Below are positions 3,242 to 42,550 of a stretch of DNA of 43,303 nucleotides, in pieces. The stretch's first letter is position 1; each line of letters starts with the position of its first letter. The notes under the pieces were generated by a model. That model made no database searches. It was not told the DNA's origin and saw only the letters and a list, made by a program, of their open reading frames with translations. A program made the translations under genes and the position numbers. This DNA comes from Candidatus Magasanikiibacteriota bacterium (lineage in GTDB: Bacteria > Patescibacteriota > Patescibacteriia > Magasanikbacterales > UBA10146): NCBI GenBank assembly GCA_016212585.1, contig JACRFU010000062.1, forward strand, positions 1 to 43,303, read 5' to 3'.

Positions 3242-3435
3242 AACATTTTACTTCTTGTAATTATACTTTACTAAATATATTCTGTAAATGATGGCGCAAT
3301 CAAAAAACACGCCGTGACCAAAGCATGTTTTTTGATTATCTTTTATTTTTTATTCCCCAGATATTCTTTCGGCCAGTTGCCGATCAGCATCTGTAACTGG
3401 AGTAAATTTGTAGATAAACCTCGCTGACATACTAT

Positions 3436-3595
3436 GGGACTGTCGCCGAATGCGCTTTTGTAGCAAAATTTCTGAATTTTGAGATAGAATTGTTGAATAA
3501 ATTTTGAGGTTTAACAGCAGTTAAGCCGAAAAATTTTGAAACGATTTTGACCGAAATTTGCCAATGAAGGAGAAATGCTATTGGGGGACAAGTCT
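3436..3595 (+). mobile_element. Family A MITE, copy 3 (subfamily A2, right terminus degenerate)
   Basis: GGGACTGTCGCCGAATGCGCTTTTGTAGC...TTGAGGTTTAACAGCAGTTAAGCCGAAAAATTTTGAAACG... The right end is decayed to GCTATTGGGGGACAAGTCT. It starts 1 nt after the secY stop codon. Confidence 0.8.
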
Positions 3596-7544: not shown

Positions 7545-8090
7545 TTATTTAGTAATCTTTTGTAAAGGGAATCCTGCCAAACGAAACAGCATCTTTGCTT
7601 CTTCAGGCGTTTTTGCGTCCGTGGTCACAGCAACCTCAAGACCATGCAGACGGTCAACCTCGTCGGATCGCACTTCCGGAAACGCGACATGTTCTTTAAA
7701 ACCAATTGCCAAATTACCTCTCTGGTCAAAACTCTTTTCAGACAATCCGCGAAAATCTCTCACGCGCGGAAAGGTGATGTTGATTAATTTGTCAATAAAA
7801 TCATACATACGCGCGCCGCGGAGCGTAACTTTGGCGCCAATAATCTGACCCTCGCGCACTTTGAAGTTTGAAATAGATTTACGCGCTTTGGTAAAGACAG
7901 ACTTCTGACCCGTAATATGTTCAAGCGTGCTTCTTACCGCTTCTTGTATTTTTGCGTCTTTAAGCAATTTACCAAAACCAACATTCACCACCACTTTGGT
8001 AAAACGAGGCGCTCCGGCCACCGATTTATAGTGGAATGTATTCTGAAGCGCGGCGCGTATTTCACTGATGTATTTTTCTTTTAAACTCAT
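7545..8090 (-). CDS. rplE: 50S ribosomal protein L5
   Basis: 181 aa with typical L5 sequence and operon position. Confidence 0.95.
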
Positions 8091-8092
8091 AC

Positions 8093-8401
8093 TTATAGGT
8101 CATTATTACATTTCTTGCAAACGCGCGTCTTGCTCTTGCCTTCAACCCTAAAACCAACACGCACACCGCGCTCGCAATGCGAACACAAAAGCGCGACATT
8201 TGAGACCGCCATAGGCGCGGACAATTCCAAAATCTGACCTTTTTGCCCCTGAGTGCGGGTGCGCAAATGCTTTTTAATAATATTTACTCCTTCTACCGCC
8301 ACTTTGTTCTCATGCGGAAACACCTGAATAACCTTTCCTGTTTTTCCTTTGTCTTTTCCCGCTAGAACTTTTATGGTGTCGCCAATTTTAATCTTTTTCA
8401 T
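8093..8401 (-). CDS. rplX: 50S ribosomal protein L24 (C-terminal CxxC...CxxC)
   Basis: True start is MKKIKIGDTIKVLAGKDKGKTGKV. The upstream part of ORF 8093-8464 is read-through of the MITE. The C-terminus carries CSHCERG...VCKKC. Confidence 0.9.
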   Translation of the reverse strand: MKKIKIGDTIKVLAGKDKGKTGKVIQVFPHENKVAVEGVNIIKKHLRTRTQGQKGQILELSAPMAVSNVALLCSHCERGVRVGFRVEGKSKTRVCKKCNNDL

Positions 8402-8412
8402 ATTGAGGTTAT

Positions 8413-8573
8413 GGGTCTGTCGCCGCATGCGCTTTTGTAATGAAACGCGCAGATTTCGAGACAAAATTGTTGAATAAATTTTGAGGTTTAATAATTTTTA
8501 AGCTGAAAAATTTTGAAATAATTTTGTCCGAAAGATGCGCGTTGCAATCAAAATGGCATTCGGCGACAGACCC
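8413..8573 (+). mobile_element. Family A MITE, full copy 4 (161 bp) between rplN and rplX
   Basis: GGGTCTGTCGCCGCATGC...GCATTCGGCGACAGACCC. It begins 3 nt after the rplN stop and ends 11 nt before the rplX ATG. Confidence 0.9.
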
Positions 8574-8576
8574 ATA

Positions 8577-8948
8577 TTATACCACTTCAGGCGCTAATGA
8601 AATAATTTTGGCAAAGCCTTTGTCGCGCAATTCGCGCGCAATCGGACCAAATACACGGCTTGCTTTTGGTTCTTTTGATTCTTTATCAACAATCACCGCG
8701 GCGTTGTCGTCAAAACGCACCGTAATGCCGTTACTGCGATTAATAGCCGCGCGCGTACGCACAATCACCGCATGCGCCACATCGCCTTTTTTAACCATAC
8801 CATACGGCTGGGCTTCTTTCACCGCTACAGTAATAATATCCCCCACGCGGGCGTAGCGCTTTTTGTAACCGCCAAGTACGCGAATACACTGGAGCTTTTT
8901 TGCTCCGGTATTATCTGCTACGGCTAACATGGTGCGGTGTTGTATCAT
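8577..8948 (-). CDS. rplN: 50S ribosomal protein L14
   Basis: 123 aa starting [18 protein letters not shown]. Confidence 0.95.
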
Positions 8949-8960
8949 ATTCGTGTTTAG

Positions 8961-9083
8961 TAGGACTTACGCCTTTGGCCAATTTCTTCGTCAAAGCCTG
9001 CGCTTCTCGCTCGTCGTAGATATACTACGGCTTGCTCCGATGCTCGGCTTTTCCTTGAACTTGTCTCAAAGGCGTAAGTCCTA
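8961..9083 (+). mobile_element. Family B MITE, copy 1 (123 bp) between rpsQ and rplN
   Basis: Perfect 17-bp TIR TAGGACTTACGCCTTTG / CAAAGGCGTAAGTCCTA, flanked by a direct 5-bp repeat TTTAG (8956-8960 and 9084-9088). Confidence 0.9.
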
Positions 9084-9084
9084 T

Positions 9085-9336
9085 TTAGGCTTTTTTAGCA
9101 ATACGCCAGCGCTTATCTTTGGATAACGGACGGCATTCAATAAAAGAAACCTTGTCGCCGGGCGCGTAGACGCCGCTGGTATAATGCACCTTAAATTTTG
9201 CGTGCACGATATAAAACTTTAAATACTTTGGGTGTTTTTTTACCTGTTCAACTTTTACCACAAGCGTTTTAGGCATCTTGGCGGAAGTAACAATGCCGGT
9301 AAAAACTTTATGTTGTACATTTTTTTTCTCTTGCAT
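9085..9336 (-). CDS. rpsQ: 30S ribosomal protein S17
   Basis: 83 aa with GIVTSAKMPKTLVVKVE, KHPKYLK and PLSKDKRW. Confidence 0.95.
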   Translation of the reverse strand: MQEKKNVQHKVFTGIVTSAKMPKTLVVKVEQVKKHPKYLKFYIVHAKFKVHYTSGVYAPGDKVSFIECRPLSKDKRWRIAKKA

Positions 9337-9337
9337 A

Positions 9338-9544
9338 TTATTTAATAACTATGTGCTTCAACAAAGTTAAGAGATGCGCGATGCGTTTGTGTGCGGCTTT
9401 CACCAAATGCACCTGCTTGACTTCTTGCGTGTGCACTTTAAACCGTAACGCGCGCAATGCCTCGCGCTCAGTGGCGAGCATACTCACGAGCTCATCCGAG
9501 TTTTTTGCACGCAATTCCTGTAATTGTATTTTTATTTTACTCAT
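9338..9544 (-). CDS. rpmC: 50S ribosomal protein L29
   Basis: 68 aa with LRAKNSDELVSML..EREALRALRFK. Position lies between rplP and rpsQ. Confidence 0.9.
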   Translation of the reverse strand: MSKIKIQLQELRAKNSDELVSMLATEREALRALRFKVHTQEVKQVHLVKAAHKRIAHLLTLLKHIVIK

Positions 9545-9959
9545 ATAAATCTTTGCTTACAAACGCGACTCTGGTAGGTAATTTATAACCAGCGAGTTTT
9601 ACTGCCTGCACCGCTATTTCTTTTGATATGCCTTCTACTTCAAAAATAATGGTGCCGGGTTTTACAATTGCCACATAGTGGTCAACCGCGCCTTTTCCTC
9701 CACCCATTGAGTTCTCGTTGCCATGCGCCGTGATGGGTTTATCCGGAAAAATACGGATCCAAAACTTGCCGCCTTTTTTTAAAAACTTGGTAATGGTACG
9801 GCGCGCGGCTTCTATCTGACGCGCGGTAATCCATGAATAATCAAGCGCTTTGAGCCCATATGTTCCAAACGCCAATTCAACTTTTGTAGTGGCAACCCCC
9901 GCGTTGCGGCGGCGGCCTTTATGCCACTTGCGATGTTTTACTTTCTTGGGAATCAACAT
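9537..9959 (-). CDS. rplP: 50S ribosomal protein L16
   Basis: True start is MLIPKKVKHRKWHKGRRRN. The upstream part of ORF 9537-10004 reads into family B copy 2. Confidence 0.93.
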   Translation of the reverse strand: MLIPKKVKHRKWHKGRRRNAGVATTKVELAFGTYGLKALDYSWITARQIEAARRTITKFLKKGGKFWIRIFPDKPITAHGNENSMGGGKGAVDHYVAIVKPGTIIFEVEGISKEIAVQAVKLAGYKLPTRVAFVSKDLYE

Positions 9960-9970
9960 ATTATGTGGTA

Positions 9971-10093
9971 TATGACCTACGCATTTGTCCAATTTCTTCG
10001 TCAAAGCCTGCGCTTCTCACTCGTCGTAGGTATACTACGGCTTGCTCCGATGCTCGGCTTTTCCTTGAACTTGTCTCAAATGCGTAGGTCATG
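9971..10093 (+). mobile_element. Family B MITE, copy 2 (123 bp) between rpsC and rplP
   Basis: TIR TATGACCTACGCATTTG / CAAATGCGTAGGTCATG. The interior is nearly identical to copy 1. Flanks are TGGTA / TGATA (4 of 5 match). The rpsC stop codon TGA (10089-10091) lies inside the element terminus. Confidence 0.88.
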
Positions 10094-10742
10094 TGATAAT
10101 CTCTTTTGACGCAAAAATATCTCCGCGATACACCCATACCTTAATGCCAATAATACCGTAAATAGTATGCGCGGTAGTGGAATTAAAATCAATATCAGAG
10201 CGAAGATTCTGCAAAGGAATTTTTCCTTCGGTAATAAACTCGCGGCGCGCGATTTCCGCGCCGTTCAAACGACCTGAAACCGCAATTTTTACTCCCAAAG
10301 CGCCTGCTTTGCGCACGCGCTCCACAGACTGCTTAAGTACGCGGCGGAACGGCACGCGTTTTTCAAGCTCAGTCACGACACCCTGTCCAATGATAGCGGC
10401 GGAAAGCGCCGGATGCGCTACTTCAAGAATATTCACTTTGACATTGGTCTTAACATCAAAAAATTTCTTTTGCAACTTTTTACGCAATTCTTCCGCTCCG
10501 GCGCCTCCGCGGCCAATAATCATGCCGGGTTTTGCCGCGGAAAGACTAATAGTAATATCGTGTGGGGTGCGTTCTATGCCAATCGCATCCACACCAGCGT
10601 CTTTGAACTCTTTCATCAAATGCGCGCGAATCGCCAAATCTTCGCGCAAAAATTTAGCATACCCTTTACGCGCGAACCATTTAGAATCCCATGTATAAAT
10701 ACTGCCGATGCGAAAAATTTTTGGATGTACTTTGTGACTCAT
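10089..10742 (-). CDS. rpsC: 30S ribosomal protein S3
   Basis: 217 aa starting MSHKVHPKIFRIG, with GIERTPHDITISLSAAKPGMIIGRGG (KH domain). Confidence 0.95.
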   Translation of the reverse strand: MSHKVHPKIFRIGSIYTWDSKWFARKGYAKFLREDLAIRAHLMKEFKDAGVDAIGIERTPHDITISLSAAKPGMIIGRGGAGAEELRKKLQKKFFDVKTNVKVNILEVAHPALSAAIIGQGVVTELEKRVPFRRVLKQSVERVRKAGALGVKIAVSGRLNGAEIARREFITEGKIPLQNLRSDIDFNSTTAHTIYGIIGIKVWVYRGDIFASKEIIT

Positions 10743-10750
10743 ACAATTAG

Positions 10751-11152
10751 TTATGATGTATATGTTGCGATTGCCGGCGCATCTTCTGTTTTTTCTTTCA
10801 CTTCTTTTTTGGCCGCGCGCATGATCTCCGTGAGCGTCAACTTAACAGAACAAGTCCGTTTGCGAATCTCATACGCTCGTCCAAACGCGCGCGGTTGGAA
10901 ACGTTTCAAAGTAGGACCTTGTTCCGCGACAATTGACTTAATTTTTAAATTGCCTGCTGATATATGAAAATTATGTTCCGCGTTTGCCACCGCCGATTTC
11001 ACCAATTTTGCAAGCGGTGTTTTATTTTTTTGCCCAGCAAACTGCAAAATCACGAGCGCGTCTTCAACACGCTTCCCGCGGATCTGGTCAATCAAGGGTT
11101 TCATTTTGCGCGTGCTTGTGCGAATTGTTTTGAGCTCTGCGAATACATCCAT
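10751..11152 (-). CDS. rplV: 50S ribosomal protein L22
   Basis: 133 aa in the conserved position, containing SAVANAEHN and AFGRAYEIRKRTCSV. Confidence 0.93.
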   Translation of the reverse strand: MDVFAELKTIRTSTRKMKPLIDQIRGKRVEDALVILQFAGQKNKTPLAKLVKSAVANAEHNFHISAGNLKIKSIVAEQGPTLKRFQPRAFGRAYEIRKRTCSVKLTLTEIMRAAKKEVKEKTEDAPAIATYTS

Positions 11153-11156
11153 AATA

Positions 11157-11489
11157 TTATTTCTTTGTGGGCGCTGGCGTGGCCGAAGCTTTTTTAGCCG
11201 CCTCTGACTGCGCCGTCTCTAAATCTTTTTGCATTTTGCCTCCGTGGCGAACAAACTTGCGCGTCGGAGAAAACTCTCCCAAACGGTGCCCCACCATATT
11301 TTCTACAATCATAACAGGAAGATGCTGTTTGCCGTTATGCACCGCAATCACAAACCCCACCATCTCGGGGGTTACCACACTGGCGCGCGCCCATGTTTTG
11401 ATAGGGGTTTTATCGCCTTGTTTCAGGCGCTTAACCTTTTTCATTAATTTTTCATCTATGTACGGACCTTTTTTTAAACTGCGTGACAT
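11157..11489 (-). CDS. rpsS: 30S ribosomal protein S19
   Basis: Starts [19 protein letters not shown], with [10 protein letters not shown] and [12 protein letters not shown]. Confidence 0.95.
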
Positions 11490-11495
11490 ACAAAA

Positions 11496-12323
11496 TTATT
11501 TACGATGTTGGATTATTAAAAAGTTGCTCCATTTCTTGCGTTTGCGCGTCTTAACCCCCAGCGCAGGCTTACCTTGCGGAGTTTCCGGACGACGCATACC
11601 GATTGGGTTGTGTCCCTCGCCGCCACCGTGCGGATGATCAACAGGATTCATGGCTTTTCCGCGCACTGACGGTCTCCAGCCCATATGGCGTCTGCGTCCC
11701 GCTTTGCCAAGACGGATCAAATTGCGGTCGGGATTGCTCAAAACGCCAATCGTCGCGGCGCATTCTTGGCTCACTTTTCGTAATTCGCCAGAAGGGAGTT
11801 TAAGTGTGGCATACCCCATTTCAACCGCCATCAACTGTGAACTAGTGCCAGCGCCGCGCACAATTTTACCGCCTTGTCCCGCCAATAATTCTATATTATG
11901 AACCATCTGGCCGACCGGAACAAATTTGAGCGGCATACGAGCGCCTGTTTTTACTTCAATGCGATTTTTTGAACTCAACACGGAGTCTCCTGCCGTAATG
12001 CCCTGCGGAGCCAATATATATGACTTCACTTTATCAGCATATTCAATCAATGCGATACGAGCACCTCTGTTGGGATCATATTCAATGGCGTTCACTGTTG
12101 CGGGTATATCATACCGCTGTTGTTTAAAATCCACCAATCTATAAAATGTGCGCGTGCCTCCTCCTCTGTGGCGCACAGTAATGCGGCCGTTGGAACGGCC
12201 GGTGCGCTTCTTGTGCACCATCATAAGCTTTTTCTCCGGTTTGTGTTTGGTGATATCGTCGAACGCATCCACCATAGTGGCGCGGCGTCCGGGAGTTGTT
12301 GGTTTGTATGTCTTAAATGCCAT
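11496..12323 (-). CDS. rplB: 50S ribosomal protein L2
   Basis: True start is MAFKTYKPTTPGRR. The upstream part of ORF 11496-12410 is MITE read-through. Contains RGKAMNPVDHPHGGGEG. Confidence 0.95.
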   Translation of the reverse strand: MAFKTYKPTTPGRRATMVDAFDDITKHKPEKKLMMVHKKRTGRSNGRITVRHRGGGTRTFYRLVDFKQQRYDIPATVNAIEYDPNRGARIALIEYADKVKSYILAPQGITAGDSVLSSKNRIEVKTGARMPLKFVPVGQMVHNIELLAGQGGKIVRGAGTSSQLMAVEMGYATLKLPSGELRKVSQECAATIGVLSNPDRNLIRLGKAGRRRHMGWRPSVRGKAMNPVDHPHGGGEGHNPIGMRRPETPQGKPALGVKTRKRKKWSNFLIIQHRK

Positions 12324-12325
12324 AG

Positions 12326-12487
12326 GGGTCTGTCGCCGAATGCGCTTTTGAAACGAAATGCGCAGATTTCGAGACAAAATTATTGAATAAATTTTGAGGT
12401 TTAATTGCAAATTAAGCTGAAAAATTTTGAAACAATTATGGCCGAACTATGCATATTGCAGTCAAAATGGCATTCGGCGACAGACCC
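12326..12487 (+). mobile_element. Family A MITE, full copy 5 (162 bp) between rplW and rplB
   Basis: GGGTCTGTCGCCGAATGC...GCATTCGGCGACAGACCC. Flanking 5-mers are CATAG (12321-12325, which contains the rplB start codon) and CATAT (12488-12492). Confidence 0.9.
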
Positions 12488-12494
12488 CATATGA

Positions 12495-12956
12495 TTATAC
12501 CGAACTCAAAAGAGTAATATGGTCTCCTTTGCCGACGGTAACCATTGCCTTCTTCCACGCTTTGCGCGTGCCGCTTCTGCGCCCAAACTGTTTTACTTTC
12601 CCGCGCATGCTCACGATGCGCACTTTGATAACCTTTACTTTAAAAACTGATTCAACCGCTTTTTTCACTTCTACTTTATTAGTGTTTTTTGCGACTTCAA
12701 ATACATATTGATTTTGTGTTTGGTGCAAGGTGTTCTTCTCCGTGAGAAGAGGACGCAATAATACGCGATGCGCGCCGCCAGTGGCGCGTGGTTTTTCTTC
12801 AATAGACGGTGTGGAAACAACCACTTCTGTTTCCTTGTTGGATTTTAATGATACAGTTTTTTCTGCAACAGCAACAATCACAGGTGTTTTTTTTTGTTGC
12901 GTTACTTGTTTTTTCTGCTCTTCTTTTTTATTTTTGTACCAATTAAAAATACTCAT
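12495..12956 (-). CDS. rplW: 50S ribosomal protein L23 with a ~55-aa N-terminal extension
   Basis: The C-terminal ~95 aa (LLRPLLTEKNT...FEVAKNTNKVEVKKAVE...KKAMVTV) are canonical L23. The N-terminal part is Lys/Glu/Thr-rich. Confidence 0.9.
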   Translation of the reverse strand: MSIFNWYKNKKEEQKKQVTQQKKTPVIVAVAEKTVSLKSNKETEVVVSTPSIEEKPRATGGAHRVLLRPLLTEKNTLHQTQNQYVFEVAKNTNKVEVKKAVESVFKVKVIKVRIVSMRGKVKQFGRRSGTRKAWKKAMVTVGKGDHITLLSSV

Positions 12957-12959
12957 ATC

Positions 12960-13601
12960 TTACTTTGATTTCACGCCGTAAGTTTTTTCCAATGATTCTA
13001 TGGTTCCCGGCATGGTAACAACATTTGCGTGGTTCAAAAGCGTTATAATATCTATCTGGTCGCGCGCAATAACCTGCACATTGTTAATATTTCGAGCGGA
13101 ACGCGCCACCAATGTATCGGACGCTGGCATAATCACTAAAATTTTACCTTTATGCAAAGGAAGTTTTTTCAAAAATCCCGCAACAAGCTTGGTTTTTGCG
13201 TTTTCCACCGCAAGGCTGTCAACAAGAATCAAACCGTTATTCTGCGCCTTGTCGGACAATACCATACACATGGCAAGCCGCTTCACTTTTTTATTGATTT
13301 TTAATTTGAAATTGCGTTCTGATGTTGGACCAAATGTAATACCGCCGCCGCGCCACAAAGGAGAACGGATAGATCCCGCGCGGGCTCGTCCGGTGCCTTT
13401 TTGCGCCCATGGTTTGCGTCCGCCGCCGCGTACCTCGCCTTTTTTCTTAGTGTCGGCAAGCACCTGACGGCGATTAGCAAACAAAGAACGCACCACCTCC
13501 GCAATCAACGCTTGTTTTGGTTTGATGCCAAAAACTGCCGCAGACAATTCTTTTGTCCCAATCACTTCGCCTTGTTGATTGTAAATCTTTAATGAATTCA
13601 T
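12960..13601 (-). CDS. rplD: 50S ribosomal protein L4
   Basis: 213 aa with GGGRKPWAQKGTGRARAGSIRSPLWRGGG. Confidence 0.95.
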   Translation of the reverse strand: MNSLKIYNQQGEVIGTKELSAAVFGIKPKQALIAEVVRSLFANRRQVLADTKKKGEVRGGGRKPWAQKGTGRARAGSIRSPLWRGGGITFGPTSERNFKLKINKKVKRLAMCMVLSDKAQNNGLILVDSLAVENAKTKLVAGFLKKLPLHKGKILVIMPASDTLVARSARNINNVQVIARDQIDIITLLNHANVVTMPGTIESLEKTYGVKSK

Positions 13602-40824: not shown

Positions 40825-40947
40825 TCGGACCTACGCATTTGAGACAAGTTCGAGGAAAAGCCGAGCATCGGAGCAAGCCGTAATATACCTACGACGAGCG
40901 AGAAGCGCAGGCTTTGACGAAGAAATTGGCCAAATACGTAGGTCCTA
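40825..40947 (-). mobile_element. Family B MITE, copy 3 (123 bp, inverted relative to copies 1-2) between gpmI and the PAP2 gene
   Basis: GGACCTACGCATTTG...CAAATACGTAGGTCC. The interior is the reverse complement of copies 1 and 2. TTTA lies on both flanks (40821-40824 and 40948-40951); the right one overlaps the gpmI stop codon. Confidence 0.88.
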
Positions 40948-40948
40948 T

Positions 40949-42550
40949 TTAAATAAGTGACTGACCGGTCATTTCCGGCGGCTGTTCAAGCCCCATAATT
41001 TTTAAAATGGTCGGCGCGACATCCGCGAGCATCCCCACCGGCGCGGACAAACTCAAATCCCCTCCCATGACGTCGCCACCGGGGCCAGTCTGCCCTTCCC
41101 ATTGTTTGCCGATAATAATAAGCGGCACCGGATAGGTGCTATGCTCTTTATCAATCCCCCCTGTTTTCAAATTGATCATTTCTTCCACATTGCCGTGATC
41201 CGCGGTAAACACTGCCACATATCCTTTGGCAAGCGCCAAATCCGTAATCTGTCCGAGCGCTTTGTCTATTACCTCCAGGCTCTTTACTGCCGCGGGCAGG
41301 TTTCCCGTGTGCCCCACCATATCCGCGTTGGCAAAATTAATCGCAACAAGTCCATACGCGCCCTTTTCAATCGCTTTCAATGCTTCTTTGGCAATTTCCG
41401 GCGCGGACATTTCCGGCTTTTGATCATAACCGGACACATGCGGCGAGGGAATAATCATTCGCTCCTCCCCGGGGAACGGTTCTTCCACGGTGCCATTCAA
41501 AAAAAATGTAATGTGCGCGTATTTTTCCGTTTCCGCCACATGAAATTGTGATAATCCAGCGTTTGCAACAACTTCCGCCAAACAATTGATAATCACATCC
41601 GGCGGGAACACCACCTCAACAGGCAAACTTTTTTCAAACTCCGCCATGGTAACAAACAATAAATTTTTGTATTCACGCGCCGTGAACTTATCAAAACTGG
41701 GAAGCGCGAACGCTTTGGTCAATTCGCGCGCGCGGTCCGGACGAAAATTAAAAAATACCACCGCGTCGTTGTCTTCCACCGTTGCCACCGGCTTGCCGCC
41801 ATCGGTAATGGTTACGGGAGCAAACTGCTCATCATATACTTCTTTTGCATACGAAGCTTTGATAGCTTCCGCGGGGTCTTTTGCTTGTTCTCCCTTGCCT
41901 TCCGCAATGGCGCGATATGTTTTTTCTATACGGTCCCATCGATTATCTCTGTCCAAAGCATAAAAACGACCCGCCAAACTGGCAACGCGGCCAACTCCGT
42001 ATTCTTTGATTTTTGCCTGCAACCTCTCCAAAGACGCGCCGCCTCCGTTAAACAATGCGTCGCGGCCGTCCAAAAACATGTGGATGTAGACTTCTTTAAT
42101 TTTTTGTTCCGCGGCAAATTTTAAAAGCGCGTACAAATGCTCCTCTGCAGAGTGTACGTTGCCGTTGCTCACCATGCCCATCAAATGCAAACGAGATTTA
42201 TTTTTTTTGACATGCGCGGCGGCCTTGAGAAGTGTTTCGTTTTTATCAAACGCGCCGCTGGAAATAGACTGATTGATGCGCAACAATGTTTGATAATATA
42301 CGCGTCCTGCGCCAATGTTCAAATGTCCTACCTCGGAATTGCCCATCTGCCCCCACTCCAACCCCACCTCATTACCGGAAGCAATGATAGTCATGGCAGG
42401 GTAAGTTTTGAGCAATCGGTTAAACACCGGCAATTTGGCCTGTGTAATGGCGTTGCCGTCCGAGGGCGGCGCAACGCCCCAGCCGTCGCAAATAATGAGA
42501 ACAACAGGCTGAATTTGCGCTTTATTTGGCTGATTTGTATCTGTTGGCAT
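40949..42550 (-). CDS. gpmI: 2,3-bisphosphoglycerate-independent phosphoglycerate mutase
   Basis: 533 aa with ICDGWG, SEVGHLNIGAGR and ADHGN motifs. Length is typical of iPGM. Confidence 0.93.
   Translation of the reverse strand: MPTDTNQPNKAQIQPVVLIICDGWGVAPPSDGNAITQAKLPVFNRLLKTYPAMTIIASGNEVGLEWGQMGNSEVGHLNIGAGRVYYQTLLRINQSISSGAFDKNETLLKAAAHVKKNKSRLHLMGMVSNGNVHSAEEHLYALLKFAAEQKIKEVYIHMFLDGRDALFNGGGASLERLQAKIKEYGVGRVASLAGRFYALDRDNRWDRIEKTYRAIAEGKGEQAKDPAEAIKASYAKEVYDEQFAPVTITDGGKPVATVEDNDAVVFFNFRPDRARELTKAFALPSFDKFTAREYKNLLFVTMAEFEKSLPVEVVFPPDVIINCLAEVVANAGLSQFHVAETEKYAHITFFLNGTVEEPFPGEERMIIPSPHVSGYDQKPEMSAPEIAKEALKAIEKGAYGLVAINFANADMVGHTGNLPAAVKSLEVIDKALGQITDLALAKGYVAVFTADHGNVEEMINLKTGGIDKEHSTYPVPLIIIGKQWEGQTGPGGDVMGGDLSLSAPVGMLADVAPTILKIMGLEQPPEMTGQSLI

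Follow-up and report, generated by a model that had tools for sequence, protein, structure and literature searches.

The supply of a gene end by a MITE is a known kind of event, represented by the QMITEs of Coxiella, by the Correia and ERIC elements and by the Rickettsia palindromic elements (RPE). In Coxiella burnetii, copies of the hairpin MITEs QMITE1 and QMITE2 reach 1-50 bp into the 3′ ends of functional genes, which thereby obtain their final residues and/or their stop codon with little change in protein size; every functional gene affected carries its insertion at this end (Wachter et al. 2018, PMC5896051). The ERIC/IRU and Correia/NEMIS repeats measure about 100-170 bp, carry TIRs and are co-transcribed with neighbouring genes, while 5′-end and 3′-end stem-loops have been described for ERIC and Correia, as well as open frames that can fuse to host ORFs (Delihas 2008, PMC2229807). 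The RPE (Ogata et al. 2000) are selfish palindromic repeats residing within conserved protein-coding genes (PMC2229807).

The locus considered here belongs to the ribosomal protein operon of a Candidatus Magasanikbacteria species, an uncultured and ultra-small bacterium of the Candidate Phyla Radiation (CPR), and lies in a window of 43,303 nt (the whole stretch of DNA that was analysed; contig JACRFU010000062.1 of assembly GCA_016212585.1). On the minus strand, rpsC (ribosomal protein S3, 217 aa; 10089-10742) is followed by rplP (ribosomal protein L16, 140 aa; 9537-9959), which starts with the ATG at 9959-9957. The two genes are now separated by 129 nt, and the TGA that ends rpsC (10091-10089) is located inside a MITE, copy 2 of a family here called family B. 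Each gene occurs once in the genome (0.93 Mb, 75 contigs); S3 matched the Pfam families KH_2 and Ribosomal_S3_C, with the domain end at residue 204 of 217, and the identity of L16 is likewise supported by a Pfam match. What is unusual here is that the gene affected is an essential ribosomal protein gene, that the junction was a coupled one of 1 nt, and that copy-specific substitutions restore the gene end. The QMITEs, in contrast, belong to a different sequence family and host phylum, and their description contains neither a case in a ribosomal protein operon nor copy-specific terminal substitutions restoring an original end (PMC5896051).

Family B is a non-coding hairpin of 123 nt, present in about 22 copies on 20 contigs of this genome. 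The genome was searched by BLAST with the three window copies as queries, which gave about 25 matches; twenty copies are full-length, each of exactly 123 nt. Their TIRs measure 17 bp, with consensus termini TAGGACCTACGCATTTG and CAAATGCGTAGGTCCTA (ends TAGGACC...GGTCCTA). The 5-bp TSDs are perfect in fifteen of the twenty full-length copies and carry one mismatch in three, and the targets are A/T-rich pentamers, for instance TATTA, ATATA, TTCTA and CTAAA. Identity to the consensus amounts to 93-98%, apart from one older copy at 83%. Stops are found in four of the six reading frames, and the two frames that are open throughout are not conserved as protein. The consensus folds as one long hairpin (-55.8 kcal/mol, z = -8.1); for copy 2 in its rpsC context the values are -55.5 kcal/mol and z = -5.6. 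Short and non-coding, with TIRs, a TSD of fixed length, dispersed copies and empty sites, family B is an undescribed MITE family with known behaviour. A search for literature on MITEs in Patescibacteria found none, the matches having concerned mites, the arthropods. No Rfam family was matched by family B between 8000 and 13000 (E <= 1), and a structured RNA gene or riboswitch was ruled out by this null result together with the multi-copy dispersal, the presence of both orientations and the TSDs.

Because family B occurs neither in the sole congeneric genome nor in any of the 239 other species representatives of the order, its expansion is recent and confined to this Candidatus Magasanikbacteria species. 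The high identity among the copies, combined with the absence from the 239 genomes, also indicates that family B is not a chance similarity. As to its mobilisation, a scan for TIRs in the 75-contig assembly (up to 4 mismatches) revealed no parent insertion sequence, that is, no long-range TIR pair with family B ends; what it did find were fragments, nested copies and a mini-derivative of 29 nt. The sole rve-type transposase found in the genome has itself been cut short by an insertion of family B. The lack of an autonomous partner is weak evidence, since the assembly is fragmented and incomplete.

Several comparisons help to place the family. The Tn3-derived inverted-repeat miniature elements (TIMEs) carry a GGGG-type 38-bp inverted repeat and have a Tn3-family transposase as mobiliser. 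Both TIMEs and family B duplicate 5 bp of A/T-rich targets, but the TSD is the only point of agreement: the termini of family B are TAGGAC rather than GGGG-type, and a Tn3-family transposase (PF01526) had no match in the assembly. Family B also differs from Correia, which duplicates TA, and from ERIC, which has different termini; De Gregorio et al. reportedly worked on ERIC elements. Whereas RNase III/RNase E processing and effects on expression have been shown experimentally for Correia and ERIC, family B is known from its predicted fold and from covariation. The RPE, finally, are inserted in frame and translated as an extra peptide, while an insertion of family B adds a net 128 nt (123 nt and the 5-bp TSD), a length not divisible by three. 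Examined as an RPE-like element, copy 2 shifts the frame, and rpsC ends 5 nt into it. No in-frame internal insertion of family B was seen, and the copies located in the middle of genes split or truncate their ORFs (C33:13766, C58).

The boundaries defined from the twenty full-length copies place copy 2 at 9971-10093 (minus strand; 123 nt), with termini CATGACCTACGCATTTG...CAAATGCGTAGGTCATA that deviate from the consensus ends given above. Upstream of it, the coding copy of the TSD, TATCA (10094-10098, minus strand), lies within the codons ATT ATC A; downstream, the now non-coding copy, TACCA (9966-9970, minus strand), is identical to the corresponding pentamer of one relative (P0003); the duplication is of 5 bp, with one mismatch. 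The adjoining 6 nt (9960-9965, minus strand) are a relic of the old rpsC end, made up of the CA of the former ACA codon, the former stop TAA (9963-9961) and the spacer T (9960). The sequence past copy 2 therefore reads TACCA-CA-TAA-T-ATG, preserving the old gene end, its TAA and the 1-nt spacer, and the element splits the final ACA codon of rpsC after its first base. As it stands, the 3′ end of rpsC is ...AAA GAG ATT ATC ACA TGA, where CATGA corresponds to element positions 1-5 and the stop TGA to positions 3-5. Excision of the element and one TSD copy gives GAG ATT ATC ACA TAA T ATG TTG, the same reconstruction as that of a preliminary description of this DNA, which had proposed that the insertion fell inside the last sense codon of rpsC, that the element terminus supplies its stop and that a 1-nt rpsC-rplP junction had thereby been expanded to about 130 nt. 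These proposals are borne out by the boundaries obtained from the twenty copies, with 129 nt as the present length of the spacer; that the boundary should include CATGA had been set beforehand as a check, and it does. A duplication of 7 or 8 bp (TAYCACA/TAYCACAT) flanking a 5′-truncated element was considered and rejected: the other copies have 5-bp TSDs, and the element measures 123 nt when counted from C1. We regard it as very probable that copy 2 was inserted into rpsC and that the present stop is derived from the element. The copy transposed into a TA(C/T)CA target spanning the last two rpsC codons, and the old CA-TAA-T-ATG was thereby displaced by 128 nt downstream.

Genomes of related species provide the empty site. 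The rpsC-rplP junction is uninterrupted in all four genus-level relatives compared (S3 88-92% identical), the junctions of three relatives reading GAGATTAACAAATAAtATG, GAGATTACCAAATAAtATG and GAGGTGACAAAATAAtATG. The TAA-T-ATG junction predicted for relatives without the element, in the form ...TAA-T-ATGTTGATTCC, was seen in three of the four, and the fourth has a 5-nt spacer. The same TAA-T-ATG arrangement recurs in the operon, at rpmC-rpsQ and, ancestrally, at rpsC-rplP. For closer strains, a pattern scan of metagenomes gave only one contig, with a junction matching that of G001. The left junction of copy 2, ...GAGATTATCACATGACCTACGC, was found in identical form in a separately assembled Logan contig (SRR12113407, a sample that is possibly the bin's own), and is therefore not an artefact of the assembly of the bin. 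It is thus extremely improbable that the element was ancestral at this site and precisely lost in the relatives, or that a chimeric assembly produced the junction. This explanation has nothing in its favour beyond the mis-joining of repeats to which metagenome bins are prone in general, and is contradicted by the absence of family B from the 239 other genomes of the order, by the 93-98% identity of its copies, by the TSD and by the recurrence of the left junction in the second assembly.

In seven genus-level relatives S3 measures 216-217 aa. Its ends in relatives are ...ITK, ...INK, ...VTK, ...EIR, ...EKK or ...ETP, while across the order its length ranges from 211 to 264 aa and the tails are unconserved. 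Since the closest relatives are only 87-92% identical in S3, the exact ancestral codons given here are putative. Because the non-coding TSD copy TACCA matches relative P0003, the ancestral S3 tail was probably ...EITT, and the coding TSD copy would later have changed from ACC to ATC, giving the present ...EIIT. The view that the insertion reproduced the original C-terminus consequently holds for the length of 217 aa and for the final Thr, and not for the full tail.

The way in which this end came about depends on the tip of the element. Relative to the consensus, copy 2 presents five private changes: T1C, G3T, C75T, C106A and C121A, of which G3T is also found in one other copy. T1>C is exclusive to copy 2 among the family B copies. 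G3>T recurs in copy C33:6046, where it has no coding role and is not accompanied by A121, and neither A121 nor the T3/A121 pair is present in any other copy. In the rpsC frame, a consensus tip would read ATA GGA CCT ... TAG, replacing Thr217 with Ile and adding the 18 residues GPTHLRQVQGKAEHRSKP. The predicted S3 tails are thus ...EIIIGPTHLRQVQGKAEHRSKP* for the consensus tip, ...EIII* with G3T alone and ...EIIT* with both changes. Nine single substitutions could each create a stop in this frame, and G3T (GGA to TGA) gives the earliest one, while T1C turns ATA into ACA, a codon that is still present after the downstream TSD copy. S3 ends at TGA only thanks to the T at position 3 of copy 2, where the consensus has G, and the C at position 1 again makes ACA (Thr) its last codon. 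The preliminary description had attributed the survival of the insertion to an element end that mimics the lost codon plus a stop. This does not apply to the family: the consensus tip is TAGGA and not CATGA, and ACA TGA arises only from the substitutions of copy 2, so that rpsC owes its stop to a rare variant tip, not to the element end in general.

Of the five private changes of copy 2, three fall within the six terminal positions (hypergeometric P = 6.4e-4, post hoc), and with the TSD mismatch included, four of six changes fall in the 16 junction positions (P = 1.9e-3, post hoc). This clustering points to selection or survivorship rather than to a terminus that generally mimics a gene end, and we lean, by a little, towards selection on the variant tip of copy 2. 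The tip could have been retained in one of two ways, either through rescue mutations after the insertion or through the survival of only that insertion whose donor already carried the variant, and either route would keep S3 at the 217 aa typical of the genus. An argument against selection is that the 18-residue basic extension might be tolerated, given how much S3 tails differ across the order (211-264 aa).

The second route can be formulated as a distinct explanation, in which T3 and A121 were already present in the two inverted repeats of the donor, the insertion brought the TGA with it (...EIII*), and T1>C alone was acquired later, neutrally or under weak selection. This comes close to the view of the preliminary description, except that it concerns a rare variant instead of the whole family. 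We consider it a possible course of events, with rather less than even chances: C121A is the exact complement of G3T, and G3T, which is also found independently in copy C33:6046, is by itself sufficient for an immediate stop, but A121 and the T3/A121 pair are known from no other copy, copy 2 and C33:6046 share no further variant, and both T1>C and the TSD mismatch need separate explanations. C121A is the exact hairpin partner of G3T, so that the stem pair is kept; it fits a donor that already possessed T3/A121, and it also fits arm-to-arm correction. Under neutral drift, finally, the insertion would have been tolerated whatever its tail, and the terminal substitutions would be chance events without selective meaning. 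The unconserved S3 tails in the order (211-264 aa) and the end of the Pfam S3_C domain at residue 204 are compatible with such a scenario, which we nevertheless judge unlikely, given that three of the five private changes occupy six of 123 positions (P = 6e-4), that they restore exactly the last residue of the ancestral protein and create the stop at the earliest point possible, and that S3 measures 216-217 aa in seven of seven genus relatives.

The donation of stops by other copies was suggested in the preliminary description as a point to be checked, and the ORFs flanking 21 family B copies were tabulated for this purpose. Apart from rpsC, no intact gene among those at the 21 copies has a stop derived from family B. 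Stops inside the element were found in just three cases, namely rpsC, a split gene (C33:13766) and a doubtful 93-aa ORF (C8), and the terminal TAG of the element also closes the ORF of a truncated transposase (C58). The other copies lie 1-15 nt after stops, or have a stop within the TSD (rpsQ, gpmI), or disrupt the gene; several are situated 4-15 nt past one stop, with the next start 9-24 nt further on, in what were formerly spacers of 5-15 nt. The TAG of the consensus tip provides an immediate stop in one of three frames, and rpsC was hit in a different frame. In the window, copy 1 (8961-9083, minus strand; 8956-9088 with its TSD) is inserted between rpsQ and rplN, and its perfect TSD CTAAA holds the rpsQ stop TAA. 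A gpmI-like gene (533 aa; 40949-42550, minus strand) has its stop in the right flanking pentamer of copy 3 (40825-40947, plus strand). Elsewhere in the genome (G000), the copy in C58:6956-7540, which is 3′-truncated, cuts a gene for an HTH + rve (IS481/IS3-like) transposase after 154 codons. Another, in C33:13347-14278 (G000), splits an ORF of about 300 aa without Pfam match (...VSNENGCNI|NKDGWGGNPHAC...) and is flanked by a perfect TSD ATATA.

For annotation, these results mean that the 129-nt rpsC-rplP spacer is a transposon. The TTG-started "rplP" ORF of 155 aa is an artefact, as are the ORFs of 58-62 aa that span copy 2; the N-terminus of rplP, MLIPKKVKHR, is identical in the relatives. 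Exact-protein look-ups for L16, in its 140-aa and 155-aa forms, returned no match. TGA is an ordinary stop in this genome, ending 81 of 417 long ORFs; recoding of TGA was ruled out on the basis of this share (19%) and of the uninterrupted state of conserved genes.

The expression of rplP downstream of the element was considered as well. A recognisable Shine-Dalgarno (SD) sequence was found for none of the eight ribosomal protein genes inspected (window positions 8090-11489), and the regions upstream of these eight genes are A/T-rich. The sense strand of family B proved free of promoter-like and terminator-like sites; a promoter or terminator carried by the element was therefore rejected, and rplP would still depend on the operon transcript. 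As the TSD regenerates them, rplP has kept its original 11 upstream nucleotides, and it is presumably translated from the read-through transcript without an SD, like its neighbours. The element, if extruded as a hairpin, would put its two flanks side by side again. We consider the account as a whole, comprising the insertion, the element-derived stop, the retention of the variant tip and the translation downstream, to be likely.

Covariation was assessed in the 16 distinct copies of family B, in which six stem pairs show changes on both sides, compared to 1.8 +/- 1.0 in shuffles, a number reached in 1 of 500 of these, although such counts are inflated by the relatedness between copies. The covariation score was 0.079 vs 0.054. 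Pairs 3/121 (copy 2) and 13/111 (copy 1) are among the six. Copy 1, which has the same sense orientation in the operon as copy 2, carries the private compensated pair A13C/T111G, the corresponding pair of copy 2 being G3T/C121A. Because the covarying stem pairs exceed those in shuffles, the hairpin appears to be under some constraint, which may be structural selection or arm-to-arm correction.

We also put forward, as a quite doubtful proposition, that the hairpin may keep rpsC and rplP translationally coupled, beyond being merely tolerated. In such a model the rpsC stop would lie in the first stem pairs and the rplP AUG 11 nt past the other strand of the stem; extrusion of the 123 nt would then return the AUG next to the stop, and terminating ribosomes could re-initiate across the stem base. 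This geometry may be likened to ribosome shunting and to the hairpin-bridged initiation regions of phage T4. The preservation of a stem pair by G3>T/C121>A and the 13/111 pair of the sense-oriented copy 1 would fit such coupling. If the model were true, both compensated pairs would reflect selection on an RNA stem in a highly expressed operon.

More generally, the very compact CPR genomes, with almost no intergenic space, can still absorb a MITE burst, because the elements end up at or inside gene ends, and one or two point changes at the tip of an element can neutralise a hit on an essential gene. The operon described here, laden as it is with MITEs, offers a natural test case for the question of how coupled operons work after hairpin insertions. 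At least four MITEs are located between rplB and rplX, two of family A and two of family B, and none of them is present in the operon of the congener. Family A is a second hairpin MITE, of about 165 nt, with termini GGGTCTGTCGCCGAATGC..., found at other junctions of the ribosomal protein operon (8409-8577 and 12322-12489; also 2461-2630 and 3430-3595). In Rfam, it gave only spurious matches to plant miRNA precursors (8000-13000, E <= 1). The operon of the congener (L082) contains none of the family A copies and has spacers of -8 to 27 nt.

Contacts between the repeat families were observed at several other places in the genome (G000). A nested insertion in C29:11616-11903 consists of a family A element lodged between the left TIR and the remainder of a family B copy, and in C72:11250-11301 and C14:7050-7085 family B fragments abut family A termini. 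The mini-derivative of family B, of about 29 nt, in C28:293-321, comprises little beyond the two TIR ends (TAGGACTTACGCATTTGAGGTAAGTCTTA) and is flanked by TAATA and TAACA. In C2:19720-19900, a fragment with the left TIR of family B precedes a third hairpin repeat, which has the termini TTGTCCCCAAATAA...TTATTTGGGGACAA and an interior resembling that of family A.
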